Source of the DNA: Candidatus Levybacteria bacterium RIFCSPLOWO2_02_FULL_37_18
Lineage (GTDB): Bacteria > Patescibacteriota > Microgenomatia > Levybacterales > UBA12049
Assembly (NCBI GenBank): GCA_001784115.1
Contig: MFPD01000011.1
Span: 28,869-92,868 of the forward strand
Reading direction: 5' to 3'
Length of the DNA stretch: 64,000 nt
In this document: positions 5,703-56,811 of the stretch, piece by piece
Layout of the letters: each line of letters begins with the position of its first letter
Position numbering within the stretch: the first letter of the stretch is position 1
The notes under the pieces: model-generated
What the model saw: the letters and a program-made list of their open reading frames with translations, nothing else
Told to the model about the DNA's origin: nothing
The model's database searches: none
Position numbers and translations under genes: made by a program

Positions 5703-5803
5703 TCATCTTTTAGAAAAGATAGAGTAAACTACTTATAACACACCTTGAACAGCGGTGTCAAGGCCTGAAAATATTGGTAACTGTTTACACTTCTGACACG
5801 ATT

Positions 5804-5918
5804 TTGTCATTCTGGAGGCTGAAAGCCGACTTGCCTGCCGGCAGGTAGGTAGAATCTCTCCCAAAGTTAGATGCTATCGCTACGCCGAGTCAGACTCGGC
5901 TGCGCTCCAGCATGACAA
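5804..5918. mobile_element. MITE-like palindromic element copy A (TIR attttgtcattctgg / ccagcatgacaattt)
   Basis: Terminal inverted repeat ttgtcattctggag...ctccagcatgacaa (13/14). Internal palindromes cctgccggcagg and gccgagtcagactcggc; the latter 15-mer is shared with copy B. Flanked by imperfect direct repeats aactgtttacac (5779-5790) and aactgtgaatagttacaca (5927-5945). Confidence 0.55.
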
Positions 5919-6555: not shown

Positions 6556-6675
6556 ACTGTGAGTGAGACATAATTCACATTGTCATGCTGGATTTATTTC
6601 ACCGAGTCAGACTCGGTTTCAGCATCTCCATTTTATAGATTCTGAATCAAGTTCAGAATGACATTTATGTCCCAG
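6556..6675. mobile_element. MITE-like palindromic element copy B with 10-bp flanking direct repeat (tcatattaag)
   Basis: Exact 10-bp direct repeat tcatattaag at 6546-6555 and 6676-6685. Terminal inverted repeat tgagacataa (6563-6572) / ttatgtccca (6664-6673) matches 9/10. Internal ttgtcatgctgg...cagaatgacat, ccgagtcagactcgg (identical to copy A) and attctgaatcaagttcagaat palindromes. Confidence 0.6.
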
Positions 6676-8664: not shown

Positions 8665-11010
8665 ATGCCTATTTCCCTGCCTTTTTTCAAAAAAAAAGAA
8701 GAGCCTAAATACTTTTTAGTACTGCTTTTAAGAGGAGAAAAAGTCCACGCCGTACTCCTTGAGGAATTGGATGGGAAAATAAAAATACTCGAAAAATCCC
8801 AAGAGTTTTTTCAAAGTTCAATTGAAGACACAAGCGAAGAAGAATTATTAACAGTACTCGATAAAGCCATAACCAATGTAGAATCCACTCTTCCTCTTGA
8901 TTTCCCTACTCACCAAACTGTTTTTGGAGTAAAAGAAAACTGGGTGCTTGATGGGAAAATAAAAAAACAATACCTTAGCAAACTTAAAAGAATCTGCGAT
9001 GAATTAGGTCTTGCTCCAATTGGATTTTTAGTTATCCACGAAGCAATCGGACACTTGATGAAAAAAGAGGAAGGAGCACCTGTATCAACACTTCTAGTTG
9101 AAACCGGTAAGCGATCTTTAATTGTTTCTTTAATAAAAGCAGGAAGAATACTCGAAACAAAAAGCGCTCCGGTTAAAGGATCATATGCTTATACCGTAGA
9201 TACACTTTTAAAAGAATTTGCTACAAGCGAAATCTTGCCTTCTCGAATTACTATTTTTAACGACGACAAAAATGAAGATGTGCTAATGCAGGAATTTATC
9301 GGACACACATGGAGCAAAAGCCTTCCTTTCTTACATGTTCCTCAAATTACAACTCTTTCTAAAGATTTTGGCATATATGCAATTATAACTGCCTCTGCTC
9401 AGCAAATGGGCTTTGAGGTTTTAGAAACAGAAAATGAAGTTGAAATCCACCAACAACTAGAGACTGCAGAGGTTCGTAAACCAGCAATAGAATCAGAAAA
9501 AGAAACCGAAGGCTACCAACCACAAAATGAGGTTCAAAGTGTTAAGGAAAGCCAAAGTTTAGAACGAGAACAAGCAGAAGAGATAGAAAAAGGAGAACAA
9601 GCAGACAACAAAGAAGCTTTATATCCGAAAGAGGACGTATTCCAAAAATTCGGATTCTACAAAGACACAGACATCGCTAAAATTTCAAAAGAAGAAGTTA
9701 TTCCACCCGAACCAATGGCGTCTCAAGAAGAATCATCTGCGCATAAACAATCCTCAAATTCATTTTTATACACGGCCATTTTAATACTCTCAAAAGGAAA
9801 ACACGTTCTTTCTCATACATTTCATACGCATATTAAACATCGTATAAAAAAACCCCGTATTTCTTTTACCATGCCTAAGGGAAAATTTGTTTTGCCGGTA
9901 TTCATAACAATTCTTTTGTTACTAGGAGCAATCCTATTGTATATTTTTGGTATAAAAGCGATTGTCACCTTGACAATCGAACCAAAAGTTATTAAACAAA
10001 CCCAAGACGTCGTATTCGTAAATACGTCTTCTGACTTCTCTAAGAATACTATTGCTGCTGATTTTATTACCATATCAGAAGAAGGATCGGTATCCGAAAC
10101 TATTACAGGCAAAAGAGAAGTCGGAGAAAAAGCCAAAGGATCGGTTACGTTGTACAGCAGATTTACCCAAGATAAAACTCTTCCTTCTGACACAACAATT
10201 ACTTCTTCAAACGGATTGCAGTTTGTATTTGATGATGATACAAAGCTTGCTTCAGCTTCTGCTGGCGCAAGTGCCTCTCCATCAACTACAAAAGCAAATG
10301 TAACGGCAAAACAAATTGGCAAAGAATCTAATCTTCCTTCTGGAACTAAATTTTCTGTTTCATCGTTTGACATATCAGATATAGAGGCAAAAAACGACAG
10401 CGCATTCTCGGGCGGATCGAAAAAAGAAATAACCGCAGTATCAAAAAATGATTTACAAAAAGCTCTAGACGATTTACCAAAACAACTCGAACAAAAAGCC
10501 AAAGAGGACCTTTCTAAAAAGGTATCAAAAGACCAAGCTATTCTTCCTTCCTTTATCTCAACCACTGTGGGTAAAAAAGATTTTGATAAAAAAGAAGGAG
10601 AAGAAGCAAAATCTCTAATACTTAAAGGAACCGTAGACTATAAAGCAATCGCATACAAGAGAAGTGATTTTATTCTTTACGCAACACGTATTCTTTCAAA
10701 CAGCTTTCCCAGCAATTTTTCCATTTCTCAAAATAATCTAAAAGAAACCGTTAAAAGCATTAAGCAAAAAAATGGTTCGGAAGTTTTATCAACCCTGGAA
10801 ATCCAAGCGTTTTTAGTATCTAAATTAGATATGGAAAATATGAAAAAAAACATTACCGGAAAGACGTTTTTGCAAGCAGAGGATCTTTTATTAAAACTTC
10901 CGCAAGTTTCTGATGTAAGAATTATTCTTTCTCCCAATGTGTCATTTTTACCCAAGTTCCTGCCCCGAATTTCTAAGAATATAGAAATTCGGACGAAAGT
11001 AAATGACTAA
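8665..11010 (+). CDS. Actin-fold (FtsA/PilM-like ASKHA) N-terminal domain + E/Q-rich linker + single TM + large extracytoplasmic domain; hypothetical
   Basis: N-terminal ~270 aa show ASKHA-like blocks (KYFLVLLLRGEKVHAVL; CDELGLAPIGFLVIHEAIG; LLVETGKRSLIVSLIKAGRILE...GSYAYTVD) resembling FtsA phosphate-1/phosphate-2 (…VDIGGGTTDIAV…) but degenerate. TM segment FVLPVFITILLLLGAILLYIFGI at ~aa 415-440, followed by a ~340-aa Ser/Thr-rich domain. The next gene is a sortase. Confidence 0.45.
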   Translation: MPISLPFFKKKEEPKYFLVLLLRGEKVHAVLLEELDGKIKILEKSQEFFQSSIEDTSEEELLTVLDKAITNVESTLPLDFPTHQTVFGVKENWVLDGKIKKQYLSKLKRICDELGLAPIGFLVIHEAIGHLMKKEEGAPVSTLLVETGKRSLIVSLIKAGRILETKSAPVKGSYAYTVDTLLKEFATSEILPSRITIFNDDKNEDVLMQEFIGHTWSKSLPFLHVPQITTLSKDFGIYAIITASAQQMGFEVLETENEVEIHQQLETAEVRKPAIESEKETEGYQPQNEVQSVKESQSLEREQAEEIEKGEQADNKEALYPKEDVFQKFGFYKDTDIAKISKEEVIPPEPMASQEESSAHKQSSNSFLYTAILILSKGKHVLSHTFHTHIKHRIKKPRISFTMPKGKFVLPVFITILLLLGAILLYIFGIKAIVTLTIEPKVIKQTQDVVFVNTSSDFSKNTIAADFITISEEGSVSETITGKREVGEKAKGSVTLYSRFTQDKTLPSDTTITSSNGLQFVFDDDTKLASASAGASASPSTTKANVTAKQIGKESNLPSGTKFSVSSFDISDIEAKNDSAFSGGSKKEITAVSKNDLQKALDDLPKQLEQKAKEDLSKKVSKDQAILPSFISTTVGKKDFDKKEGEEAKSLILKGTVDYKAIAYKRSDFILYATRILSNSFPSNFSISQNNLKETVKSIKQKNGSEVLSTLEIQAFLVSKLDMENMKKNITGKTFLQAEDLLLKLPQVSDVRIILSPNVSFLPKFLPRISKNIEIRTKVND

Positions 11011-17606: not shown

Positions 17607-18239
17607 TTACTTTACCTCCACGTGTCTCTCGATTTTTGTTTCTTTGCCGAATCGATTTACAGCCCGAATTACGATTATTGACTTACCTAAGAATACGTCA
17701 ACTGTTTTTTTAAACATTCCCTTTTCTTCCAAAAATACAGCATTATTATTAATATACACTGTTACATTGGAATCTGTTTTGCCAATAATTTGCACAGATG
17801 AACCGTTAAGCACTACTCCTTCTTTTGGACTTGTTACTTCAAGCGGTGGAGCTAAAAATGCGTACCGATTTTGATAAAAAATATAAGTTACCAACAATAG
17901 TAACAATATAACAATAGTAACAATTGTCCGACTTAACCTTGTTCTATGAATAGAAAAATCCTGTCTTCCTACAAGACCTTCAGGTAAAACTCTATATATT
18001 TTTTCTTCATCAAATTCCCTTCTAAAAAGAGCCATGGTTTCTTTTTCCGGAAGTCCAAGATATTCAATATAATTACGAACAAATCCCTGGGCGTATGCTC
18101 GTGACGGAAGTTTGTTATATTCCCCTTTTTCTATTGCGGAAAGAAATTGAGGTTTAATTTTTATTGCCTTTGATACATCTTCCAAGGTTAAACCTTTTTT
18201 ACTGCGTGCGTCAAAAAGAATCTGACCAACATGAATCAT
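17607..18239 (-). CDS. rodZ: RodZ-like protein (XRE-type HTH + TM + periplasmic domain)
   Basis: HTH (GQILFDARSKKGLTLEDVSKAIKIKPQFLSAIEKGEY), single TM (IVTIVILLLLLVTYIF) and C-terminal beta-rich domain. Start likely at MIHVG (complement of 18237-18239). Confidence 0.6.
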   Translation of the reverse strand: MIHVGQILFDARSKKGLTLEDVSKAIKIKPQFLSAIEKGEYNKLPSRAYAQGFVRNYIEYLGLPEKETMALFRREFDEEKIYRVLPEGLVGRQDFSIHRTRLSRTIVTIVILLLLLVTYIFYQNRYAFLAPPLEVTSPKEGVVLNGSSVQIIGKTDSNVTVYINNNAVFLEEKGMFKKTVDVFLGKSIIVIRAVNRFGKETKIERHVEVK

Positions 18240-18357
18240 AAATTCAAAAATCAAAAGGCAAAATTTCAATTCAAAATGCAAAAGTAAAGATTGTTTAGAA
18301 CTGGATTTTGACTTTTTACTTTCACTTCTGAATTTTGACCTTTGACTTTTGACTTAA

Positions 18358-20505
18358 TTATTGTTCTTGTCCGTGCAAGCTATTGAGGAACTCCTGTGCA
18401 TTTTGGACAAGTACGTCTCTTGGCTTGGCCCCTTCTCCAGGGCCGACAATTCCAATTTCTTCTAACTGATCAAGTATCCGAGCAGCCCGAGAATACCCGA
18501 CAGATAATCTTCTTTGTAAAAGCGAAGCCGACGCTCTATCGTGTTGGCATACTGTCCGAATTGCTTCTTCAAATAACGGATCTCTTCCGTCAGGTGAACC
18601 TCCACCTGTGTGTCCGTTGCCTTTTTTAAGAGGCAATTGTTGCGCTGTAACTTCTTCTGTATATTCAACCGGAATTCCTTTTGATTTTAAGAAATCAACT
18701 AATTTTTTAACTTCTTTTTCCGAAACATACGTACCTTGAATACGCGTTGGTTTGGCTTGATCTGGAGGGACATATAACATATCTCCTCTTCCTAATAATT
18801 TCTCAGCCCCAGGGCCGTCGATTATTACCCTGGAATCAATCATCGAGGAAACGTTAAATGCGATTCTGCAAGGTATATTTGCTTTAATAAGTCCTGTGAT
18901 AATATTAACAGACGGCCTTTGGGTTGCAATTACCAAATGAATTCCGGTTGCCCTGGCCATTTGAGCAAGACGGGCAATAGAATCTTCAACATCAACTGGA
19001 GCAAACATCATAAGATCCGCAAGTTCATCAATGACAATCACAATATAGGGAAGTGCCTGAAATCCGGATAATTCATTGTATCCGTCGATGTTTTTTACTC
19101 CTCTTTCTGCAAATAATTTATACCTTCTGTCCATTTCGCCCATCGCCCATTTTAATGCAGATAAGATTTTTTCCGGTTCTACAATTACCGGAGTAAGTAA
19201 ATGCGGAATACCATTGTATGCTGTAAACTCAACTCGCTTTGGATCAACAAGAATTAACTTTAACTCAGCAGGAGACGCACGAAATAAAAGCGTGCAGATA
19301 AAAGAATTAATTAAAACTGATTTTCCAGATCCTGTGGTACCGGCAACTAACACATGAGGCATTTTGGCAATGTCCGCAACAACTGAATTTCCCGACACGT
19401 CAAGACCTAATGCAGCCGTTAATTTTGATTTACTCCTCTGCATGGAAGAAGAAACAAGAATTGTCTTTAATGTGACAATTTCAAGCGATTTATTCGGAAT
19501 TTCTATACCAACTAAATTTCTTCCGGGAATCGGCGCTTCGATTCTGATTTGTCCGGTTGGAGCTTCCGTTGCCAAAGCCAAATCGTTTGATAATGCAGTA
19601 ATTTTAGAAACCTTTGTGCCCAAAGCAATTTCCAAAGCATACTGGGTAACAGCAGGACCTAGGTTTACTTCAGAAACCCGGGCGTCAACGCCAAAGCTCT
19701 GTAGAGTTTTCTCTATAACTGCAGCGACTTTTTTAATATCTCCCCTGTCTGCTTTTTGATTTGAAGCATCAGACAAAAGAGATAAAGCCGGATATTCCCA
19801 AATTCCTCCACTTGTTAATTCTCCAACAGTATTGGTTACTAATTTTTCGGACAAAAGCTCTGGTTCTTTTTTTACGTGCTGAATTTTTATATTGGCAGCC
19901 GGAATCACAGCTACATCTTTTATCCCTCCTCCTTTTATTGCGATTGGTTTATTTCTGACAATAAGTTGTTTTTTTGTTTTGAAAAGTGAGTTAATAAGAT
20001 TTTTTGGATAGAATCGTAAAATATTTTTAATTGTAAAAGAAACACCTTGCGTTAACTCATCTAGTGTTGTATCAAACAATACCACTAATCCCACAAATAC
20101 TCCTATCAAAAACACAAGCATGCTCCCTAATTTGGTAATCATTTCCGCAAATGTTCTAAATAACATTTCGCCGACTCTTCCACCCTGTGTAAGACCAACA
20201 AGAGAAGTAAAAAACAAGACAAACCCAAGCGCTACATTAGGTTTTGAAATAAATAGTTTTAGTCGTAAAAATAAAAAACCAAACAGAATTATTACAAAGG
20301 GAAATAATATTGCGGAAAACCCAAACATTTCTTGGAGTTTTGTATTTAATGTCGTAAACGAACCGCCGCTTTCTCCAGGTGGAGTAAAAAATGTAAGAAG
20401 AAGTAAACCACCTGCTAAGATAAACCCTAAAGCAAAAAGAGTATAAATTGTCTCTTTTCGAAGTTTTAATTTTGGACCTCTCCGCCTATATCTTCTCTTG
20501 GGCAT
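18358..20505 (-). CDS. ftsK: DNA translocase FtsK/SpoIIIE
   Basis: N-terminal TM helices, then motor domain with Walker A (VAGTTGSGKSVLINS) and Walker B (IVIVIDELADLMM). Confidence 0.9.
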   Translation of the reverse strand: MPKRRYRRRGPKLKLRKETIYTLFALGFILAGGLLLLTFFTPPGESGGSFTTLNTKLQEMFGFSAILFPFVIILFGFLFLRLKLFISKPNVALGFVLFFTSLVGLTQGGRVGEMLFRTFAEMITKLGSMLVFLIGVFVGLVVLFDTTLDELTQGVSFTIKNILRFYPKNLINSLFKTKKQLIVRNKPIAIKGGGIKDVAVIPAANIKIQHVKKEPELLSEKLVTNTVGELTSGGIWEYPALSLLSDASNQKADRGDIKKVAAVIEKTLQSFGVDARVSEVNLGPAVTQYALEIALGTKVSKITALSNDLALATEAPTGQIRIEAPIPGRNLVGIEIPNKSLEIVTLKTILVSSSMQRSKSKLTAALGLDVSGNSVVADIAKMPHVLVAGTTGSGKSVLINSFICTLLFRASPAELKLILVDPKRVEFTAYNGIPHLLTPVIVEPEKILSALKWAMGEMDRRYKLFAERGVKNIDGYNELSGFQALPYIVIVIDELADLMMFAPVDVEDSIARLAQMARATGIHLVIATQRPSVNIITGLIKANIPCRIAFNVSSMIDSRVIIDGPGAEKLLGRGDMLYVPPDQAKPTRIQGTYVSEKEVKKLVDFLKSKGIPVEYTEEVTAQQLPLKKGNGHTGGGSPDGRDPLFEEAIRTVCQHDRASASLLQRRLSVGYSRAARILDQLEEIGIVGPGEGAKPRDVLVQNAQEFLNSLHGQEQ

Positions 20506-23398: not shown

Positions 23399-23534
23399 AC
23401 CTATAGAATACTACAAATACTACCAATAAACAAAATAATTCAGAATCTAGAATTCATAATTCAGAATAAAATTAAGAATGTAGAATTATAAATTCTAGAT
23501 TCAATTCTGAATTCTAAGCTCTGAACTCTAAATT
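23399..23534. repeat. EcoRI/XbaI-like simple-repeat spacer (AATTCAGAAT / TCTAGAATTC units)
   Basis: aattcagaatctagaattcataattcagaataaaattaagaatgtagaattataaattctagattcaattctgaattctaagctctgaactctaaattc. Similar arrays at 18282-18357, 22246-22282, 34255-34304 (ttctgaa x4), 36228-36330, 36835-36873, 37630-37700, 49076-49172. Confidence 0.6.
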
Positions 23535-25886
23535 CTAATAGTGGGTTTTTCGAAAGCGTGGACGAGGAGAGGTAGATCGAAGGTTATTTCTCTCCGACCT
23601 TTCTCTTTGAAATTGCCTTGACAGCGGATGAGGCGAACGCCTCTCAGGTCTTTCATCTCGTCTTTCTGGTCTTCTTCCCGAAGTCTGTCCTCGCCTGTCA
23701 AGTCTTCGACCCCCAGGTTCAGACCCGAAGGTCCCGCGACCTCGGCTTTCGGCCTCCGGCCCAAACAACATTGACAAGTTTATCCTTCCTTGCTCATCAA
23801 TTTCTGCGACTCTGACTTTTACTGTTTGTCCAATTGACACTACATCCGATGGGTCTTTGACAAAATTTGTTGACATTTGAGACACATGGACCATTCCTTC
23901 TTTTCCAGGAAGAATTTCAACAAAGGCTCCAAAAGGAAGCATGCGCCTTACAACTCCTTCAAACTCCTCTCCAACAACTATTTCCCGGGTCAAATTCCTC
24001 ACCCAATCTGTTGCCTTTCTAACAGCTTCCTCAGAAGTCCCCGAAACCGTAACTGACCCGTCATCCTCAACATCAACCGTTGCCGAAGTTTCGGCAATAA
24101 TATTTCGAATAACTCGCCCGCCCGGCCCAATTACCTCACCGATTTTTTCAATCGGTATCTTAACAACTTCTATTTTGGGAGCAAATTCAGAAACTGCTGC
24201 TCGTGAAGCAGTAATAACTAACTTCATTTTTTCTAAAATAGAAAGCCTCCCCGCTTTTGCTCTTTGTAGTGTTTCCTTAATCTGATCAATGGTTAAACCC
24301 AGAATCTTTACGTCAAGTTGAACTGCCGTAATACCGCTGTCTGTACCACTAACTTTAAAATCCATATCACCGGAAAAATCTTCCAGCCCAATTATGTCGG
24401 AAAGAATGACATATTCATCTTTACCTGAATCTGCTAAACGGCTCATCATTCCCATAGCAATCCCTGCAACTGGTTTTTTGATCGGAACTCCGGCATCCAT
24501 TAAAGCCAGTGTTGATCCGCAGGTTGCTGCCATACTCGTGGAACCATTAGACGATAATATTTCAGAAACAACCCTAATGGTATAAGGAAATTTTTCTTGA
24601 CTTGGAATAACAGCTTCAAGTGCCCGTTCTGCCAAAGCTCCATGCCCAATTTCCCTTCTTGAAGGAGTACCCATTCTCCCTGTTTCCCCTACAGAATAAG
24701 GAGGCATGGAATAATGATGAATGTATCGCTTGGATTCTTCTCCTTCTGCGGATTCGATTAACTGCTCGAGTCTTGGAGATCCAAGAGTTACAACTGTCAA
24801 AGATTGAGTGTTTCCTCTTTGGAACAAGGCAGATCCGTGAGTTCTCGGCAAAAGTCCAACTTCTACGGTTATAGGACGAATCTCATCGATTTTTCTTCCA
24901 TCTACTCTTTGAGACTTGGTTAAAACAGCCTCTCTAATTCCTTCAAATAGAATCATTTCAACTGCTTTTGCTATAGTTTTTTTATCTACTGGGCTTTCCG
25001 GATTTGCTAATCCTGAGCTTGCCGAATGGACTTCTTCAAAAATTTTACTAAGTAGATCTTCTGATTCTGAGGAATCAGCTTCTTTTGTCGCTCTGGATTT
25101 TCCCAGTTCTATAATCTCTGATTTATATGATTTTTCAATCCGGGCAACAAGCTCATGTAAGACGCTACTTTCTGCTGCAACTTCTTTCTTTTGTCCAATT
25201 TCTTTCGCTAATTTCTTTATTGCCTCAATAATTTTTATATTTTCTTCGTAAGCTTTCTGAATTGCTTCAACAACAACGTCCTCGGAAACTTGTCTTGCAT
25301 CAGCTTCAAGCATGAGGGTTTTTTCTTTTGTTTGAGTCACTACCAAGTTAAGATCGGAAAGGGCTATTTCTGCGATATGAGGATTTATAATAAAATCATA
25401 CTTCCCATTTCCTTGTTCTTTTATAAGACCGATTCTAACGGCACCAACAGGACCTTTCCATGGAATTTTTGACAAAGACAATGCTGCCGAAACCGCAACA
25501 ATTGACAATACATCCGGTTCATTCTCTCCATCAACTGATAAAACAGTAACTACGACTTGGATTTCTTTTTTGTATTCTTTAGGAAATAAGGGTCGAATTG
25601 ACCTGTCTATTAAACGTGCTGTTAAAATTGCCTCGTCTGAAGGTCTGCCTTCCCGTTTTACCCACCTACTCCCTTTAATTCTTCCGCCTGCGTACAACCT
25701 TTCTACGTACTCAACTGTCAAAGGAAAATACCCTAATTCTGTTTCCTTTCCTTCCACAACAGTCACCAGTACCATTGTGTCTCCCAAACGAGCAAGTACG
25801 GAGGTTGTTGCTTGCCCAGCAAGCTGTCCTGTCTGTAGAATTATGGTTTTTCCGTTAATATCTAAGTTTACTGAGGTCTTTTGCAT
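23535..25886 (-). CDS. pnp: Polynucleotide phosphorylase with Arg/Gly-rich C-terminal tail
   Basis: Two RNase PH domains, KH and S1 domains (GEEFEGVVRRMLPFGAFVEI), followed by an ~80-aa R/G/E-rich extension encoded by a locally GC-rich stretch (23535-23770). Confidence 0.93.
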   Translation of the reverse strand: MQKTSVNLDINGKTIILQTGQLAGQATTSVLARLGDTMVLVTVVEGKETELGYFPLTVEYVERLYAGGRIKGSRWVKREGRPSDEAILTARLIDRSIRPLFPKEYKKEIQVVVTVLSVDGENEPDVLSIVAVSAALSLSKIPWKGPVGAVRIGLIKEQGNGKYDFIINPHIAEIALSDLNLVVTQTKEKTLMLEADARQVSEDVVVEAIQKAYEENIKIIEAIKKLAKEIGQKKEVAAESSVLHELVARIEKSYKSEIIELGKSRATKEADSSESEDLLSKIFEEVHSASSGLANPESPVDKKTIAKAVEMILFEGIREAVLTKSQRVDGRKIDEIRPITVEVGLLPRTHGSALFQRGNTQSLTVVTLGSPRLEQLIESAEGEESKRYIHHYSMPPYSVGETGRMGTPSRREIGHGALAERALEAVIPSQEKFPYTIRVVSEILSSNGSTSMAATCGSTLALMDAGVPIKKPVAGIAMGMMSRLADSGKDEYVILSDIIGLEDFSGDMDFKVSGTDSGITAVQLDVKILGLTIDQIKETLQRAKAGRLSILEKMKLVITASRAAVSEFAPKIEVVKIPIEKIGEVIGPGGRVIRNIIAETSATVDVEDDGSVTVSGTSEEAVRKATDWVRNLTREIVVGEEFEGVVRRMLPFGAFVEILPGKEGMVHVSQMSTNFVKDPSDVVSIGQTVKVRVAEIDEQGRINLSMLFGPEAESRGRGTFGSEPGGRRLDRRGQTSGRRPERRDERPERRSPHPLSRQFQRERSERNNLRSTSPRPRFRKTHY

Positions 25887-34226: not shown

Positions 34227-34304
34227 ACTTTTATTTTACCAATTATTGAACAAAAAAGCGCGGTTTCCGCGCTCAATTCTGAATTCTGAATTCTGAATTC
34301 TGAA

Positions 34305-36227
34305 CTAGTCCACCACTTCTCCCTCTATCGGCTCATCCTTATCCGACTTTTTCTGTTCTTCTGTTTTTTCCGAACTCTGATCTTCTGTCTTTTGTTCTTT
34401 ATCCTCCGATTTCTGACCTCCGGCCTCTGAACTCTGTTGTTTGTAAAGTGCTTCTCCTACTTTTTGTAAAGAATCGGAAAGATCTTTTGTTTTAGCTTCT
34501 AAATCTTCTTTTGTGCCGCTATCCAAAACTGCTTTGAGTAATGACATTTTTTCTTCAACTTCTTTTTTTGTGTCAACACTTACTTTATCTCCTGCGTCTT
34601 TTAAGGATTTTTCTGCAGTAAATAGTAAAGAATCTGCTTGGTTTCTGGCTTCAACGTGTGCTTTCTTTTCTTCATCTTCTTTTGCATGCATTTCTGCTTC
34701 CTTAGTCATTTTCTCAACTTCTTCTTTTGTCAGTCCGGTTGAGCCGGTAATTTTAATACTTTGTTCTTTTCCTGTTGCCTTATCTTTTGCTTTTACCGAT
34801 AAAATTCCGCTGGCGTCAATATCAAAGGTAACCTCTACTTGAGGCATTCCACGAGGAGCAGGCGGAATTCCATCCAAAATAAACCTTCCAAGTGACTTAT
34901 TATCGATAGCCATGGGTCTTTCTCCTTGCAGTACATTAATTTCAACCTGTGTCTGATTATCAGCTGCTGTTGAAAATACCTGAGATTTAGAAGAAGGAAT
35001 AGTTGTATTTCTTGGAATTAAAGGTGTGGAAACTCCTCCAAGTGTTTCGATACCAAGTGTTAAAGGAGTAACATCTAAAAGCAATACGTCTTTCACTTCT
35101 CCTCCTAATACCCCACCCTGAACAGCAGATCCGACTGCAACTACTTCGTCCGGATTAACTGATTTATTAGGTTCCTTACCAAAGAATTTCGAGACAACCT
35201 CAACAATCTTTGGCATTCGAGTCATTCCTCCAACCATAACCACCTCATCCACATCACTTGCTTTCATTCCCGCGTCTTTAAGAGCCAGTTCAACAGGTTT
35301 TAAGGTACTTTGAACAAGGTTATCCACCAACTGTTCAAGTTTGGCTCGGGTCAGAGTCATGGTAAGATGAAGCGGTCCTTCTTTACCTTGAGTTATAAAG
35401 GGCTGATTAATTTCTGCTTGGGTAGAGCTGGATAGTTCTATTTTTGCTTTTTCTGCTGATTCCCTTAATCTCTGCAAAGCTTGTGGGTCTTTTTTTAAAT
35501 CAATACCGTGTTCTTTTTTAAATTCCTCTGCAATGTATTCAATAATTTTCTGGTCAAAATTATCTCCTCCCAAATGGGTATCTCCGTTGGTTGATTTAAC
35601 TTCGTATACTCCCTCACCAAGTTCAAGAATAGAAATATCAAAGGTTCCTCCTCCTAAGTCATACACGGCAATCGTATGTGCATTTTTTTTGTCAAGTCCG
35701 TAAGCTAAAGCTGCCGCAGTAGGTTCATTAATAATTCGAAGCACTTCAAGGCCTGCTATTTCTCCTGCTTGTTTAGTTGCTTGGCGCTGAGAATCGTCAA
35801 AATATGCAGGTACGGTAATAACAGCTTGCGTAACTTTTTCTCCCAAATAATTTTCCGCGTCTGTTTTGATTTTTTGTAAAATTTGAGCGGAAATTTCTTG
35901 AGGAGTAAATGTTTTTCCTTCTGCTTCAACAACAGCCATCCCGTCTCGGCCGGCTTTAACTGTATACGGAAGCCACTTTAAGTCGTACCGAACAGACTCG
36001 TCGTTGAATTTACGACCCATAAGTCTCTTGACTGAAAAAATTGTTCGTTTGGGCTTTAAAACAAGTTGCCGCTTTGCCACGTCTCCCACGACATGAGAAA
36101 CCGGATCAACAACCGATGGAATAACATTTCTTCCTTCTGCGCTATGAATTACTTTGGGACTTCCTCCCTCCATAACCGCAACGCATGAATTTGTTGTACC
36201 TAAATCTATGCCAATTATCTTTGCCAT
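34305..36227 (-). CDS. dnaK: Chaperone DnaK (Hsp70)
   Basis: [35 protein letters not shown] and the complete Hsp70 architecture. Confidence 0.97.
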
Positions 36228-36330
36228 ATGTTTCTTTCAGTCAAATCCAAAATTCAAAGTTCAAAATTGCAATTCAAAATTTTAAATTACTAACTTTCAA
36301 CTATAACTTTTAATTTTTAATTTTGAACTT

Positions 36331-36834
36331 TTAACTTTTTCCTACCTTTACCTGTGCAGGCCTTAAAACCTTATCTCCCATTTTATACCCTGCTTGTATT
36401 TCTGACAATACCTTTCCTTCTTCTCCTTTTTCAGTTACTACACATTCCATAAGCGTTGGGTCAAAATCTTTTCCGACTGTTTCAATTCTTTCAACGCTCT
36501 CATTTCTTAAAACATCTCCAAATTGCTTAATACTCAGTTGCAACCCTTGATTGTCTACATGCTGACTTGCCATGACTAATATATCTAAAACCGGAAGTAG
36601 CCGCAATATCAACTGTCTATTCGTACTCAGTATCCATCCTCTTTTTTCTTCTCGTACTCTTTTTTCTAAATTCTGATAGTCTGCTAAAGCCCGCTTGGCA
36701 ATACTTTCTAACTCTTCAACCCGTTTTTTACATTCAATAAGTTCCGAATTTTCTGGTTCTGAACTTTCTACTTTTTCTACATCCTCTACTTCATCTACTT
36801 TTTTTATATCGTTTTTATCTTTCTTCTTACTCAT
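36331..36834 (-). CDS. grpE: Nucleotide exchange factor GrpE
   Basis: Coiled-coil N-part plus C-terminal beta-domain, between hrcA and dnaK. Confidence 0.85.
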   Translation of the reverse strand: MSKKKDKNDIKKVDEVEDVEKVESSEPENSELIECKKRVEELESIAKRALADYQNLEKRVREEKRGWILSTNRQLILRLLPVLDILVMASQHVDNQGLQLSIKQFGDVLRNESVERIETVGKDFDPTLMECVVTEKGEEGKVLSEIQAGYKMGDKVLRPAQVKVGKS

Positions 36835-36873
36835 TTTAATTCTGAATTGTAAACTCTAAATTCTAAATTGGAA

Positions 36874-37605
36874 TTACCATCCTTTTGCTATCTCTTCGAT
36901 TAAACCTCCGAAATATCTCACGGTCGGTACTACATACATATAATTTAATCTCACAGGGCCTAATACACCAATATCTCCAGAAATATTTTCAGGTGTGGTG
37001 TATCTGGTAAATACAAACCCATATTGAGGTGGAAGTTTTGGCCCTAATTCTTCTCCCATCAGTATATGAATACCTTCGTTATCTTCTTCAGCTTTTTGAC
37101 ATAAGTCTTTAAAATAATCAAATTCATCAATTGCCGAAAGCAAACTTCTGGTAATATCAATGTCAAAAAATTCAGGCATGTCTAAAATATTTGCGTATCC
37201 AGAAGCATACACTGTCCCGTCGCTTGCGGTTGCCACGGCAAGCGTTTTTGTTTTTTCTGCTAAAGTCCTGGTGAGTTCTCGCATGAATTCATGAATTTTA
37301 TTTCGCAGGTCCCATAATCTCTCCTTAACCGCTACTTCTTCAACTACAGAAAGTTCCTTCTCCTTCATGAGCTGTCTGACATAAAATTTCATACCCATTG
37401 GTGTCGGAATTCTACCTGCTGAAGTATGCGGTTTTCTTAAGTACCCCAAATCTGTGAGCCTAACCATTTCGTTTCGAATAGTCGCGGGAGATACGCTTAA
37501 ATTGTGTTTTTTTTCAAGAGTTTCGGAGCCGACTGACTCGGCTGTATCAATATATTCTTCAATGAGGCTTTTAAGAATTTCTATTTGTCGTTGGGTAAGC
37601 TGCAT
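36874..37605 (-). CDS. hrcA: Heat-inducible transcription repressor HrcA (short form)
   Basis: MQLTQRQIEILKSLIEEYIDTAESVGSETL matches the HrcA N-terminal wHTH (LTERQ..IL..IV..Y...G.PVGS). Heads the hrcA-grpE-dnaK-dnaJ operon, with a CIRCE-like inverted repeat upstream. Confidence 0.8.
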   Translation of the reverse strand: MQLTQRQIEILKSLIEEYIDTAESVGSETLEKKHNLSVSPATIRNEMVRLTDLGYLRKPHTSAGRIPTPMGMKFYVRQLMKEKELSVVEEVAVKERLWDLRNKIHEFMRELTRTLAEKTKTLAVATASDGTVYASGYANILDMPEFFDIDITRSLLSAIDEFDYFKDLCQKAEEDNEGIHILMGEELGPKLPPQYGFVFTRYTTPENISGDIGVLGPVRLNYMYVVPTVRYFGGLIEEIAKGW

Positions 37606-37731
37606 ATGCGCTAAAATTCTAATGTTCAAATGTCTAAAACTGTTTTGAATTTTGTATTTTTATTCATTTGAATTTGTTTCGGATTTAGATATTAGAATTT
37701 CGGATTTCTTAATTTGCAACGCAAATTAAGA

Positions 37732-37758
37732 TTAGCAGTACTATACCACGACTGCTAA
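37732..37758. promoter_or_regulatory. CIRCE-like operator (TTAGCAGTA-N9-GACTGCTAA) upstream of hrcA
   Basis: 9-9-9 inverted repeat matching the CIRCE consensus TTAGCACTC-N9-GAGTGCTAA at 7/9 + 8/9 positions, ~100-125 bp upstream of the hrcA start. Adjacent 8-bp-arm palindrome taatttgcAACgcaaatta (37710-37728). Confidence 0.6.
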
Positions 37759-47437: not shown

Positions 47438-49481
<2,044 letters not shown>

Positions 49482-49643: not shown

Positions 49644-50812
49644 TGCAACGAAACAAATTTTTAATTGGGGGCATTATTGCTGTTTTGTTGATTACTATTC
49701 CCTTAACGGTCTTTTTACTTGGGCAACAGCAACAAACTCAAACCAAAGCAACACCTGCAACCACACTCTCTTTAGCGCTATCTAATCCCTCTCAAACAGT
49801 TACTGTAGGGCAAGACTTTGGTGTTGATATTAATATCAATCCAGGAAGCAATCAAGTTTCGTATGTAAAAGTGACAATTAATTTTGATGAAACAAAACTA
49901 GCAACCTCAGGAGCAGGATTTGAACCAAGTGCTTCTTTTCCTACCACACTTGAAGGCCCTATATTTACTTCAAACTCGTTTACTGTTGGTCTTTCAATTG
50001 GGGCTGATTACACAAAAGCAGTACAAACACCCGGAAAAGTAGGAAAACTAACATTCCGTGCCAAAGCACTAACCAATGGCACCCAACAACTTGCCAGCTT
50101 TGATACAGGGCAACAAAAAACACTGGTTCTTTCTATTGCAAGCAGCCAAGATAATTATAACGAAAATGTTTTATTGCCAAATCCCGCACCTCTTTCTTTA
50201 GCTATCTCAGCAGGACCAACCGGAACACCCGGGCCAACAGCACCAACCCAAGCACCAACCTGCAGCAACTTAAAAATCGATAGGGTAGCAAGCGGTAATA
50301 CGCCGTTTTCTATTACATTTACCGCTGATGGAAGCGATCCTGACGGGACAATTTTTAGGGTATCTTTTGACTTTGGAGATGGACCAAGTCAAGATGAAAC
50401 TGCCGGCGGTGGCATTGGAACCGGTACAGTAAGTGTCCCTAAATCTCATACGTATAACAATCCAGGAACGTACGAAGCCAGAGCAACCCTCTATGACAAT
50501 AATCAAAACGCAAGTTTGCCTAATACCAAGTGCACAAAAACAATAACTGTAACTCAGGGACCAACTCCCACTCCAGGATCCATTTCTGCGATTACCCCTA
50601 TTCCAACCCCGCCATTATCTGCACAACCAACTGCTATTATTCTTACCCCCACACCGCTTGCTTCTAATCCAACAACTATTGCGCAAAGACCAACTACAAC
50701 TCCACCAGGTCAACCACCGCCAAACTCTGGACCAGGAGATGCCATTCTTGTAGCCGGGGGTATTGGATTTGTCCTATCTGTAATTGGTGCGCTTTTGTTT
50801 TTTGGACTCTAG
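49644..50812 (+). CDS. PKD-domain surface protein with N-terminal signal anchor, Pro/Thr-rich stalk and C-terminal TM
   Basis: MQRNKFLIGGIIAVLLITIPLTVFLLG signal anchor. PKD-like block DGSDPDGTIFRVSFDFGDGPSQ...HTYNNPGTYEARATLYDNNQN. PT-rich stalk (TPTPGSISAITPIPTPP...TTTPPGQPPP). C-terminal hydrophobic helix. ORF-track start (49601) uses TTG; ATG at 49644 preferred. Confidence 0.6.
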
Positions 50813-52680
50813 GTATTTTCAATCATTGACAAAATCGCTTCTTGGGGAAGTACTATTTTTCCTGTTGTAATCATTTTTGCTTTTCCCCTCTTTTGCTTTT
50901 TAAGCAACTTATCTTTTCTGGTTCTATCACCGCCTGACATTTTTGCCAACACATTTTTTCTAAAGGGTGGGATTTCTTCCCTGGCAACAATCGTACCATT
51001 TACAACAGATTGAATAATCTGTCTAAACTGCTGTCTTTCCAGAAACTCTTTTAATTTTTCAGCTTTTTGCCTGGCAATCTGTATTGCCTCATCTCTATAT
51101 ACAAGTTCTGACAATACATCAATGGAAACGTCGTTAATTCTTACTTCAAGCGAAACTAAATCAGCTTTTCTATACTCTATTAATTCATAATCAATACTCC
51201 CAAAACCCGAAGAAACGGATTTTAATTCAGCTGACAACCCTCTCATAAACATGCTGTATGGCGCCTCAAAGGTTAAAACTGCATACATTTCGAAGTAGGA
51301 GAGGTCAATTAAATTCCCTTTTCTTTTTTGACAAAGCGTTATAATGGATCCTACAAAACCAGATGGCGTATAGATAATCAGTTTCATGTATGGCTCAAGA
51401 TATTCACCCATTGAATCTTTGTCATACAACACATGTGGCATGGTAAAAAGTAAATCAAGTAAAAATTCTTGCTTAAGCCGTTCTTTTACTATTTCTGCAT
51501 GGAGTAATCCTAAAAATCCAACCCGAAACCCGCTTCCTAAATACGCTGAATATTCTTCTGTATACGTTAAGGCTGTATCATTTAAAGCAAGTTTTCCTAA
51601 TGATTCTTTTAAACGAATTAAATCATCTGTGGTTTTCGGATACACCCCAAAAAAAACCATTGGCTTTGGCACTTTATATCCCGAAAGCGCATGAATTTCG
51701 ACTCCCTTGTCATCTACAGCTAATTTTGAATTTTTAATTTTTAATTTTGAATTTATTATCGTGTCTCCTACTCGGCAAAGACGTATGTCTTTAATTCCTG
51801 TAATAATATAGCCAATTTCACCTGTTAAAAGTTGGCCGCTTGATTTTAAAAATGGCGTAAAATGTCCAATATCGGTAATTTCTGTTTGCGTACCATTTTG
51901 AAAGAATTGAATTCTTTCTCCTTTTGCAACGATTCCGTCCATAATTCTGACATACGCAACCACACCTTTATATTCGTCATATACTGCGTCAAAAATAAGT
52001 GCGCGAAAAAGATCTGCTTGGCTTCCGTGGGGAGTTGGAATTCTCCCAACAACAGCATCTAACAAATTGCCAACGTTTTCTCCGGTTTTTGCGGAGATAA
52101 AAAGCATTTCTTCTTTTGTAAATCCAAATGTATCAACAAGTTCTTTTTCTGTTGTTTCAATTTGCGCATTAGGAAGATCTATTTTATTAATTACAGGAAT
52201 GAGTTTTAAATTAAGCTTTTTGGCGCTTTGGAAATGAGCTACTGTTTGAGCCTGAATCCCTTGGGTTGCGTCAACAAGCAAAATCGCACCATCGCACGCT
52301 GCAAGCGTTCGGGAGACCTCATACGAAAAATCTACGTGTCCGGGAGTATCAATTAAGTTCAAAATGTATCTTGAACTTGCAAACTCGAAATTCGAATCTC
52401 GAAATTCGAAATTATTTTGTTCATTTGAATTTTGAATTTGAGGATTGTTTCGGATTTCGGATTTCTGATTTCGGATTTCCGGATGGTATATCATCCGTAC
52501 TGGTGCTAATTTGATCGTGATTCCACGTTCCCTGCTTATCGGATTTTGATCCAAGAACTGCTCTTTCAGATCATTTTTGGGAACAGTTTCTGTTATTTCC
52601 AAAAATCGATCCGCAAGCGTTGACTTCCCATGATCCACATGAGCGATAATGGCAAAATTTCTAATCTGCGATTGATTCAT
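50809..52680 (-). CDS. lepA: Elongation factor 4 (LepA) with two low-complexity insertions
   Basis: IIAHVDHGKSTLADR, DTPGHVDFSYEVSR, NKIDLP, and the LepA-specific C-terminal domain (…RKNVLAKMSGGDRTRKDKLLKKQKRGKAKM). A ~32-aa insertion (EIRNQKSEIRNNPQIQNSNEQNNFEFRDSNFEF) before DTPGH and a ~11-aa KLKIKNSKLAV insertion relative to E. coli LepA. Confidence 0.93.
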   Translation of the reverse strand: MNQSQIRNFAIIAHVDHGKSTLADRFLEITETVPKNDLKEQFLDQNPISRERGITIKLAPVRMIYHPEIRNQKSEIRNNPQIQNSNEQNNFEFRDSNFEFASSRYILNLIDTPGHVDFSYEVSRTLAACDGAILLVDATQGIQAQTVAHFQSAKKLNLKLIPVINKIDLPNAQIETTEKELVDTFGFTKEEMLFISAKTGENVGNLLDAVVGRIPTPHGSQADLFRALIFDAVYDEYKGVVAYVRIMDGIVAKGERIQFFQNGTQTEITDIGHFTPFLKSSGQLLTGEIGYIITGIKDIRLCRVGDTIINSKLKIKNSKLAVDDKGVEIHALSGYKVPKPMVFFGVYPKTTDDLIRLKESLGKLALNDTALTYTEEYSAYLGSGFRVGFLGLLHAEIVKERLKQEFLLDLLFTMPHVLYDKDSMGEYLEPYMKLIIYTPSGFVGSIITLCQKRKGNLIDLSYFEMYAVLTFEAPYSMFMRGLSAELKSVSSGFGSIDYELIEYRKADLVSLEVRINDVSIDVLSELVYRDEAIQIARQKAEKLKEFLERQQFRQIIQSVVNGTIVAREEIPPFRKNVLAKMSGGDRTRKDKLLKKQKRGKAKMITTGKIVLPQEAILSMIENT

Positions 52681-56706: not shown

Positions 56707-56811
56707 CCTGACATTACCCCAGCTTTGCTTCAAATCGTCATTCTGGAAAGCAACGACTTTTCCAGAATCAGATTCTGGACAAGCCAGAATGACAAAGTGG
56801 GATAATATCAG
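56707..56811. mobile_element. MITE-like palindromic element copy C (TIR tgacattacccc/gggataatatca; flanking imperfect direct repeat cctccagtcc/cctccaatcc)
   Basis: Terminal IR 10/12, nested hairpins gtcattctggaaa/tttccagaat and attctgg/ccagaat ending ccagaatgacaa (same terminal motif as copy A). Direct repeats at 56697-56706 and 56812-56821. Confidence 0.55.

Follow-up and report, generated by a model that had tools for sequence, protein, structure and literature searches.

A Probable In-Frame Copy of a Dispersed Palindromic Spacer Element in the lepA Gene of a Levybacteria Bacterium

The lepA Gene and Its Assembly Support

We analyzed a 64,000-nucleotide stretch (the window) of the genome of Candidatus Levybacteria bacterium RIFCSPLOWO2_02_FULL_37_18 (contig MFPD01000011.1 of assembly GCA_001784115.1, positions 28,869 to 92,868); unless another genome is named, coordinates are those of the window. 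Its lepA gene, which encodes elongation factor 4 and is an intact open reading frame (ORF) of 623 amino acids (positions 50809–52680, minus strand), contains in frame a palindromic element of about 100 nt built from heptamers (insert 1, positions 52375–52479, minus strand), which encodes residues 68–102 (EIRNQKSEIRNNPQIQNSNEQNNFEFRDSNFEFAS) in the β2–β3 turn of the G domain. We regard it as likely that insert 1 is an in-frame copy of a dispersed palindromic spacer element of this length and that the lepA copy is translated as a disordered loop.

The assignment of the host gene rests on several features. The translation shows the G motifs AHVDHGKST, DTPGH, NKID, and SAK, so that the GTPase motifs are intact despite insert 1, and the domains GTP_EFTU, GTP_EFTU_D2, EFG_C, and LepA_C of Pfam are present on a protein identical to that of the window. 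Both the G1–G4 motifs and the LepA-specific C-terminal domain are thus found, and the phmmer search of solved structures returned the LepA chain 2ywe with E = 7e-154. For Candidatus Levybacteria bacterium RIFCSPHIGHO2_12_FULL_38_12, which belongs to the Candidate Phyla Radiation (CPR), the identical protein is recorded under the name elongation factor 4.

Chimeric joins caused by repeats can occur in metagenome assemblies, and a repeat-induced misassembly or binning error could in principle have placed spacer DNA into lepA, an outcome named in the initial annotation as one that would undo its reading. The exact 623-residue protein is encoded on at least 24 contigs, and the six places shown for it correspond to six samples (two genome assemblies at NCBI and four assemblies at ENA), the gene neighborhood being the same. 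The other member of the LepA 90% cluster has equal length and a single substitution, which lies outside the insert, and many other assemblies carry orthologous inserts. Because the identical protein recurs across independent assemblies with the same neighbors, the insert is not an assembly artefact; an artefact is hardly credible here. No strain-level length polymorphism of lepA, such as a contingency locus or a microsatellite would show, was seen among at least 25 contigs of the population.

Anatomy and Predicted Structure of the Insert

In the mRNA sense, insert 1 consists of a 5′ arm of about five GAAATCC/GAAATCA units (positions 52447–52484, minus strand), an A-rich central loop (...CAATCCTCAAATTCAAAATTCAAATGAACAAAAT..., positions 52414–52446, minus strand), and a 3′ arm of ATTTCGA/ATTTCGAG units (positions 52381–52413, minus strand) that is the approximate reverse complement of the 5′ arm. 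The arms were delimited from the arrays of Tandem Repeats Finder and the loop from an alignment of 11 lepA inserts, across which it is among the best-conserved nucleotide stretches of the element. Tandem Repeats Finder reported arrays of period 7 at positions 52381–52413 (AAATTCG, 4.7 copies; also as a 14-mer, 1.9 copies, with a further array at 52384–52410), 52424–52439 (TTTGAAT, 2.3 copies), and 52448–52484 (TTTCGGA, 5.1 copies). The element as a family has a loop of CAAAATT-type units between arms of four to five 7-nt units each, of the GAAATCC type on one side and TTTCGGA/TTTCGAA on the other, and its nhmmer profile matches lepA itself at positions 52380–52481. In the predicted fold of insert 1 the two arms pair (−20.5 kcal/mol, z = −2.05).

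The tandem repeats that the initial annotation had described at positions 52381–52477 are therefore present as period-7 arrays, but they are not merely tandem, since the heptamers form two inverted arms, one of the CGAAAT type and one of the ATTTCG type. Likewise, its description of EcoRI-like palindromic units holds as far as the element is palindromic, while GAATTC is only one among several unit types.

At the protein level, residues 1–67 and 103–620 align by phmmer with the solved LepA chains 2ywe, 3cb4, 5imq, and 4w2e, and residues 68–102 face only three residues of Aquifex LepA (2ywe). Insert 1 thus replaces the turn joining the post-switch-I strand and the strand leading to DTPGH, with 32–35 extra residues and a net gain of about 32 directly before DTPGH, as the initial annotation had proposed for a G-domain loop. 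The AlphaFold model (66 homologues, mean predicted local distance difference test (pLDDT) score 78.9) gives residues 70–101 a pLDDT below 50 without secondary structure, between the confident strands 61–65 and 105–111. The solved-structure alignment and the model agree on the loop location, and together they predict a disordered surface loop at a fold-compatible site. For the position of the insert we rely on this search of solved structures. Inteins, introns, and translational bypass were considered as explanations and rejected: the insert is short and without splicing motifs, and the frame is open without a stop codon. We infer that insert 1 is translated; NNPQIQNSNEQNNFEFR is an example of a tryptic peptide that would span it.

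Copies of the Element outside lepA

A DNA profile was built from the lepA inserts of 11 Levybacteria, using lepA sequence only, and was searched with nhmmer. In the window it finds a full-length intergenic copy in the groES–groEL spacer (positions 49085–49174, minus strand; E = 3e-7, profile positions 5–102) and a second intergenic copy in the hrcA leader (positions 37621–37708, minus strand; E = 3.3e-7, profile positions 4–89), from which only the end of the 3′ arm is absent. Insert 1 aligns end to end with positions 49076–49172 of the groES–groEL spacer at about 80% identity with few short gaps, both in the transcript sense. The resemblance to the spacer upstream of hrcA, pointed out in the initial annotation, is borne out by this profile and by blastn (17/18 and 28/35 matches at positions 37658–37708, covering the loop and the 3′ arm); the match to the groES–groEL spacer is the stronger one and is full length. 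Against the rest of the window, insert 1 gave 18 matches of at least 24 bits, compared with 0.97 for shuffled inserts.

The same profile detects copies in frame within other conserved genes, a check suggested in the initial annotation. A full-length copy lies in uvrC of another genome (L173, positions 4383–4483, E = 9e-21), whose uvrA carries a partial in-frame copy with the left arm and loop only (positions 1212–1276). Another genome (L174) has a full-length in-frame copy in tsaD (E = 2e-17) together with a second, partial copy in the same gene. No further in-frame copies in other genes were found in the 1.3 Mb of loci examined. As regards the two host genes, the insert-bearing UvrC of L173 was encountered on at least 24 contigs, and the tsaD matches of L174 lie at positions 2733–2789 and 3000–3099.

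Three relatives carry full-length intergenic copies: in L032 directly after groES, that is, at the position of the groES–groEL spacer, and in L100 and L101 at a matching offset downstream of lepA. The LepA proteins of these three have no insert. All five full-length intergenic copies outside the lepA of the window run in the sense direction of their operon. When the insert of a species was compared with the groES–groEL spacer of that species, only the spacer of the window was a copy, the spacers of L169, L170, and L172 being unrelated or different. In a matrix of the 9-mers that the insert of each species shares with the flanks of the same or another species, the diagonal was not enriched, the A+T-rich background dominating. 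In 348 kb of non-CPR lepA loci (Planctomycetota and others) the DNA profile had no match; a presence of the inserted peptide in unrelated lineages, which the initial annotation had named as evidence for an ancestral domain, thus found no support.

At the peptide level, the insert profile yielded nothing but small orphan ORFs in a word-indexed search, which did not recover even the LepA proteins, and for this reason an exhaustive hidden Markov model (HMM) search was run; among 1.84 billion representative proteins it gave 179 matches. Most of them are orphan ORFs of 40–150 amino acids, which we read as intergenic copies of the element called as genes. The in-frame matches are to LepA, TsaD (three representatives), UvrC, an RluA-type pseudouridine synthase, large surface proteins, and intein-containing proteins; together with the DNA profile, this places in-frame copies in tsaD, uvrC, uvrA, and a pseudouridine-synthase gene of other genomes. 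Insertion sites in TsaD include the NH(M/I)EGHIY...LLVSGGHT loop and others. Two TsaD proteins, P0171 (455 amino acids) and P0210 (465 amino acids), are longer than expected for TsaD and have repeat-derived inserts at three sites per protein, at least two of which match the element family. In P0151 (1423 amino acids) the element peptide adjoins an intein, and in P0158 (1015 amino acids), which also contains an intein, it stands at the C-terminal end.

Distribution among LepA Relatives

In most of the 120 nearest LepA proteins (63–76% identity), the TIK-to-DTPG region is 27 residues long; we take the corresponding figure for E. coli LepA to be 28. Three or more extra residues at the codon position of insert 1 occur in 34 of the 120, and about 20 of these 34 carry the insert 1 element, with the peptide xIxNxKxQIxNKSQIQNSNxQNxLEFRxSDLEF. 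P0002, which at 76% identity is the closest relative and has the same gene order, is without insert 1, and its groES and groEL are 1 nt apart; the closest relative with the insert is P0003. The position is free of any insert in about 70% of Levybacteria LepA proteins, and in a neighbor-joining tree the carriers are scattered among the non-carriers. Comparisons at the DNA level were made without P0003 and P0017.

Orthologous inserts differ in length: those of L088 and P0003 are 21 nt shorter, that of P0017 is longer by about 14 residues (probably 42 nt), and differences of 6 nt occur too. The inserts of P0011 and P0019 (YNPKIPNSK|YILNL) resemble deletion remnants, which suggests loss by internal deletion. 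Of the two properties that the initial annotation had proposed to examine, variable length is therefore seen, in 21-nt and 6-nt steps between relatives, while the insert is not the mark of one lineage, being spread over a patchy subset of Levybacteria LepA.

Other inserts at the same lepA position are short hairpins and elements of the GTCATTCTGA...TCAGAATGAC and GTCATCCTGAGCGAA types. In L093, a Levybacteria-like genome, 19 nt of the lepA insert (positions 4213–4231) are identical to a spacer of the window at positions 56771–56789. Since different palindromic families, including this 19-nt match, occupy the same position, the codon position of insert 1 appears to be a recurrent permissive landing site for several spacer-repeat families. 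Three loci may serve as examples for this lepA position: L016 (3190–3252) has a perfect G+C-rich hairpin (AGCCTCGCCTAGGC...GCCTAGGCGGG), L021 (3187–3273) an element of the GTCATCCTGAGCGAA type, and L027 (3190–3315) a composite sequence in which heptamer repeats surround a G+C-rich hairpin.

Conservation by Codon Position

The mean pairwise nucleotide identity per codon position was calculated from a codon alignment of 11 lepA genes. In the flanking parts of lepA it is 0.80, 0.90, and 0.42 for positions 1, 2, and 3, with an amino-acid identity of 0.81, and in insert 1 it is 0.68, 0.76, and 0.68, with an amino-acid identity of 0.48. The pattern recurs in L088 and L091, the pair with the closest sequences (amino-acid identity of the flanks 0.98), with 0.83/0.87/0.83 in the insert vs. 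0.96/1.0/0.52 in the flanks. The insert is accordingly under weaker peptide constraint than the rest of LepA and under stronger nucleotide constraint than the synonymous sites of the flanks; because all three codon positions are about equally conserved, the constraint acts on the nucleotides and not on the peptide alone. In the alignment of the 11 inserts the AAAT cores are invariant at a spacing of 7 nt.

A Mantel comparison of insert and backbone similarity among 15 sequences gave r = 0.12, which is not significant (1001 of 5000 permutations reach it), and in the pair P0018/P0026 the backbones are 86% identical and the insert subtypes differ. The lack of correlation, obtained with these 15 sequences and a neighbor-joining tree, argues against strictly vertical descent of the insert.

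A Second Heptamer Array in lepA

Insert 2 (positions 51721–51753, minus strand) is an array of 4.7 AATTTTG/AATTTTT units encoding NSKLKIKNSKL in a domain II loop after GDTI; Tandem Repeats Finder places it at positions 51722–51754 (AATTTTG, 4.7 copies, period 7). The nearest relative P0002 lacks exactly KIKNSKL (21 nt) at this site, so that the addition of KLKIKNSKL given in the initial annotation (nine residues) has to be corrected to seven in comparison with this relative. Many Levybacteria LepA proteins have heptamer-coded self-repeats here, for example, NSEFRIQNSEF, SKFKVQSSKF, ENGKWKIEDGKF, and NNLQLTSNNF. The unit sequence varies by species and the period is kept, the self-match at shift 7 being 0.37 vs. 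0.26 in control segments. AlphaFold predicts short strands at this site (pLDDT about 88). Insert 2 is best explained, judging from these sequences, as an old array of loop-type units that would change by slippage of three units at a time.

Origin of the Insert and Alternative Explanations

According to the reading that we prefer, the element normally resides in the spacers within operons, here in the groES–groEL spacer and in part of the hrcA leader. One whole two-armed copy would have entered the β2–β3 turn of the LepA G domain and would be read through as 32–35 residues without harm to the GTPase motifs. Copies within genes would survive only where the frame stays open, and later changes in length would include steps of 21 nt, that is, three units or seven codons. 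For the nucleotide conservation two causes are the likeliest: re-insertion or gene conversion would hold the lepA copy close to the conserved family, or the copy would retain a function at the DNA or RNA level. Both the mode by which the element spreads and the cause of the nucleotide-level constraint are matters on which we can only infer. The proposal of the initial annotation that a spacer family expands into an essential gene and is tolerated there agrees with our data as regards tolerance in frame; for insert 1, "expands into" is probably wrong, as a whole element seems to have been captured.

Several observations weigh against this interpretation. The A-rich low complexity of the insert raises the identity expected by chance to about 0.33 (an estimate from base composition), although the observed 0.68–0.83 is well above this level. 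The insert peptide is nearly gapless across species, with a mean column identity of 59%, and such an alignment may equally be expected of a vertically inherited functional protein segment. For the 11 lepA inserts together, RNAalifold gives no consensus pairing, and their individual hairpin z values range from +1.9 to −3.7; therefore, the palindrome would be decaying or shifting its register within lepA. Only full-length ORFs were sampled, which creates a bias toward open frames. Finally, no target-site duplication, transposase, or mobilizing function was identified (ends inspected by eye, transposases not searched for), and mobility is for this reason deduced from distribution only.

These points have to be compared with what other explanations offer. 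The insert could have arisen in place by microsatellite-like slippage within lepA, its likeness to spacers reflecting a mutational bias across the genome. Such slippage would account for the length differences of 21 nt (probably 42 nt in one case) in L088, P0003, and P0017 and for insert 2, which differs from the nearest relative by exactly 21 nt and whose units vary between species at a constant period. It would not account for the co-linearity (arm, loop, arm) of insert 1 with the groES–groEL spacer or with the copies in uvrC and tsaD of other genomes (E = 1e-17 to 1e-21), since independent slippage would hardly recreate the same three-part sequence; nor does it fit the unrelated palindromic spacer elements at the same lepA site in other lineages or the absence of length polymorphism in the population. 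For insert 1 slippage is thus contradicted by full-length homology and is unlikely, whereas for insert 2 it appears to be the best explanation. Nor is insert 1 mere tolerated junk, its third codon positions being far more conserved than those of the surrounding gene. Another explanation takes the insert for an old extension of LepA with a role at the protein level, for example, a contact with the ribosome or a partner, the similarity to spacers being secondary. About 20 diverged LepA proteins do carry it at the same position, in the same frame and orientation, with a recognizable motif and few internal gaps, and in several pairs the nearest neighbor by insert is also the nearest by backbone. 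However, purifying selection on a protein leaves the opposite of what is seen here, namely an amino-acid identity of 0.48 against 0.81 in the flanks together with more conserved third positions. The loop is predicted to be disordered, it is lacking in the closest relative and in most Levybacteria LepA proteins, its similarity does not follow that of the backbone, and the same sequence stands in spacers and in unrelated proteins. We consider this extension very improbable.

A role of the lepA copy at the DNA or RNA level, as a protein-binding array of AAAT units at 7-nt intervals, a hairpin for RNA processing or stability, or a site of translational pausing, would supplement the capture of a spacer element and not replace it. 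The equal conservation of the three codon positions, slower to change than the synonymous sites of the flanks, speaks for such a role, as do the invariant AAAT cores at their 7-nt spacing and the operon-sense orientation of all five full-length intergenic copies. On the other side, there is no pairing conserved in register, hairpin stability is lost in some species, no Rfam family matches, and the same pattern would arise without any function of the lepA copy if a conserved family renewed it by gene conversion or re-insertion. This role is conceivable but rather doubtful. With regard to Rfam, the window as a whole has no match at gathering thresholds to any structured RNA family, and over insert 1 there are only generic hairpin (miRNA-precursor) matches far below threshold.

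In its widest form, which we put forward tentatively, our proposal is that of a heptamer-built family of about 100 nt, present in Levybacteria and in other genomes, and possibly widespread in CPR. It would be under purifying selection at the nucleotide level and would colonize both spacers and the loops of essential proteins (LepA, TsaD, UvrA, UvrC, and the pseudouridine synthase). As an independent analogue of the palindromic elements of Rickettsia, it would keep its DNA or RNA function when translated, for instance as a phased array for protein binding or as a site of RNA processing, and the LepA turn would be a recurrent landing site for several families of this sort.

Comparison with Known Repeat Elements

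The Rickettsia palindromic elements (RPEs) were reportedly described by Ogata et al. in Science in 2000 (290:347), and palindromic repeats in frame within essential genes have remained a Rickettsia curiosity for 25 years. RPEs are repeats of 100–150 bp, abundant in both intergenic and coding regions (PMC10969869), which are found in frame in unrelated genes, encode conserved peptides, and in some cases were inserted before the divergence of species (PMC1779305, PMC10969869); the RPE-7 insert in pheT is a published example of an old insert common to diverged species (PMC1779305). The element described here resembles them as a dispersed repeat of similar size and palindromic potential that lies between genes and in frame in housekeeping genes, at fold-compatible positions and with a conserved peptide, in some cases as an old insert common to diverged species; RPEs, too, are without a known transposase. 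In the window, one copy is in lepA and two are intergenic; in-frame copies with a conserved peptide occur in the unrelated proteins LepA, TsaD, UvrC, UvrA, the RluA-type synthase, and surface proteins; and the predicted structure places the LepA copy at a fold-compatible surface site. Unlike RPEs, the element is hosted by Levybacteria and not by Rickettsiales, and we do not claim descent from RPE families 1–10. Its arms consist of tandem 7-nt units with some length steps of 21 nt, several unrelated palindromic families share one lepA codon position, and conservation at the nucleotide level across codon positions is shown for it. From these sequence comparisons, the element would be a new RPE-like family in a new phylum; of the features that define RPEs, conserved hairpin pairing is the one that the lepA inserts do not clearly show.

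Small repeats such as ERIC, BOX, Correia, and Nezha and transposable elements of the miniature inverted-repeat type (MITEs) also lie in genes and occasionally form in-frame fusions with host ORFs (PMC10969869). Like MITEs, the Levybacteria element is a small, non-autonomous repeat with inverted symmetry and is mostly intergenic; in contrast to them, it showed no classical terminal inverted repeats, target-site duplication, or parent insertion sequence (ends inspected by eye, no transposase search), and its arms are heptamer arrays that are repetitive in themselves. The flanking TAC (Tyr) codons occur in insert-free LepA as well and are therefore not a target-site duplication. With repetitive extragenic palindromic (REP) sequences and bacterial interspersed mosaic elements (BIMEs) it shares the imperfect palindromes between co-transcribed genes (the hrcA, groES–groEL, and neighboring heat-shock-type ORF spacers), and by this analogy a role of the spacer palindromes in mRNA stability or punctuation is plausible. 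REPs are G+C-rich sequences of 20–40 nt, extragenic by definition and linked to RAYT transposases, whereas the present element has about 100 nt, is A+T-rich, and occurs also within genes. In A+T-rich genomes of the Plasmodium type, conserved proteins have disordered loop insertions rich in N, K, S, and Q, to which slippage adds changes in length. The Levybacteria insert differs from these in being a defined, alignable element with copies elsewhere and not anonymous low complexity. In the full-text literature we found no description of such elements in CPR, Patescibacteria, or Levybacteria.

Two features stand out, namely the conservation at the nucleotide level in a translated loop and a landing site common to several element families. 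A second, independent family of this kind, in an unrelated lineage whose genomes are likewise reduced, would suggest that such elements are driven into protein loops where a small genome offers few spacers. If the conservation of third positions reflects function, a nucleic-acid signal would be overlaid on a translated loop. Insert-bearing and insert-free relatives with the same gene order (the window and L167; the copies in lepA and groES–groEL) provide a natural experiment on gain, loss, and gene conversion. In practical terms, the elements yield many spurious small ORFs and inflated protein lengths, and pipelines that work with orthology, indel signatures, or predicted structures of these bacteria can be misled by them.

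Heptamer Arrays and Palindromic Spacers in the Window

Arrays of period 7 are in about sixfold excess in the window: at a threshold of 15 matches in 21, 15 arrays were observed vs. 2.5 expected from locally shuffled sequence. With periods 4, 5, 8, and 10 the count does not exceed the shuffle background, and with periods 11 and 13 it reaches about 2.5 times this background (4 arrays vs. 1.6). Nearly all period-7 arrays lie in spacers between co-directional genes or at their edges, and the only clear arrays deep within a gene are the three in lepA. A typical spacer consists of a run of units followed by a run of reverse-complement units. Six spacers were folded: three form long imperfect hairpins with z = −3.6 to −5.5, and the others give −1.5, −2.0, and +0.8. 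The three, for which no strand is assigned, are a related heptamer palindrome of a more diverged unit type with weak nhmmer matches (positions 18228–18362, z = −3.6), a heptamer palindrome of AATTCAG/AATTCTA units (positions 23435–23540, z = −5.5), and a heptamer palindrome (positions 36240–36344, z = −3.8) between the ORFs 36331–36834 and 34305–36227, which from gene order are presumably grpE and dnaK.

Heptamer palindromes make up every spacer of the run of ORFs with hrcA and also the groES–groEL spacer (positions 34246–34311, 36240–36344, 36836–36877, 37621–37708, and 49076–49172). Past the ORF ending at position 34305, an array of 4.3 AATTCTG units is followed by a G+C-rich intrinsic terminator (GCGCGGAAACCGCGC with T6; minus strand, about 34252–34272). 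Upstream of hrcA there is an inverted repeat resembling CIRCE, the controlling inverted repeat of chaperone expression (TTAGCAGT-N10-GACTGCTAA, positions 37732–37758), which adjoins a perfect palindrome (TTAATTTGC-AAC-GCAAATTAA, positions 37709–37729); the two are probably heat-shock operator sites beside the heptamer element.

The window also has spacer palindromes of a second family, the GTCATTCTGG...CCAGAATGAC type, at positions 5797–5915, 6590–6670, and 56735–56800; the 19 nt shared with the lepA insert of L093 belong to it, and VILNEVKDL...ILRVAQNDK-like peptides of other LepA proteins resemble its translation. The GC skew of the window is negative in nearly all 2-kb bins, with an almost monotonic fall of the cumulative skew; by this measure neither an origin nor a terminus of replication is visible in the window. 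An exact 18-nt reverse-strand match to the loop of the lepA insert (TGAATTTGAGGATTGTTT) lies at positions 9745–9762, within the ORF 8665–11010 (plus strand), a large hypothetical membrane protein, and the KQSSNS that it encodes there belongs to a low-complexity linker; the match could be a fragment of the element or due to chance.

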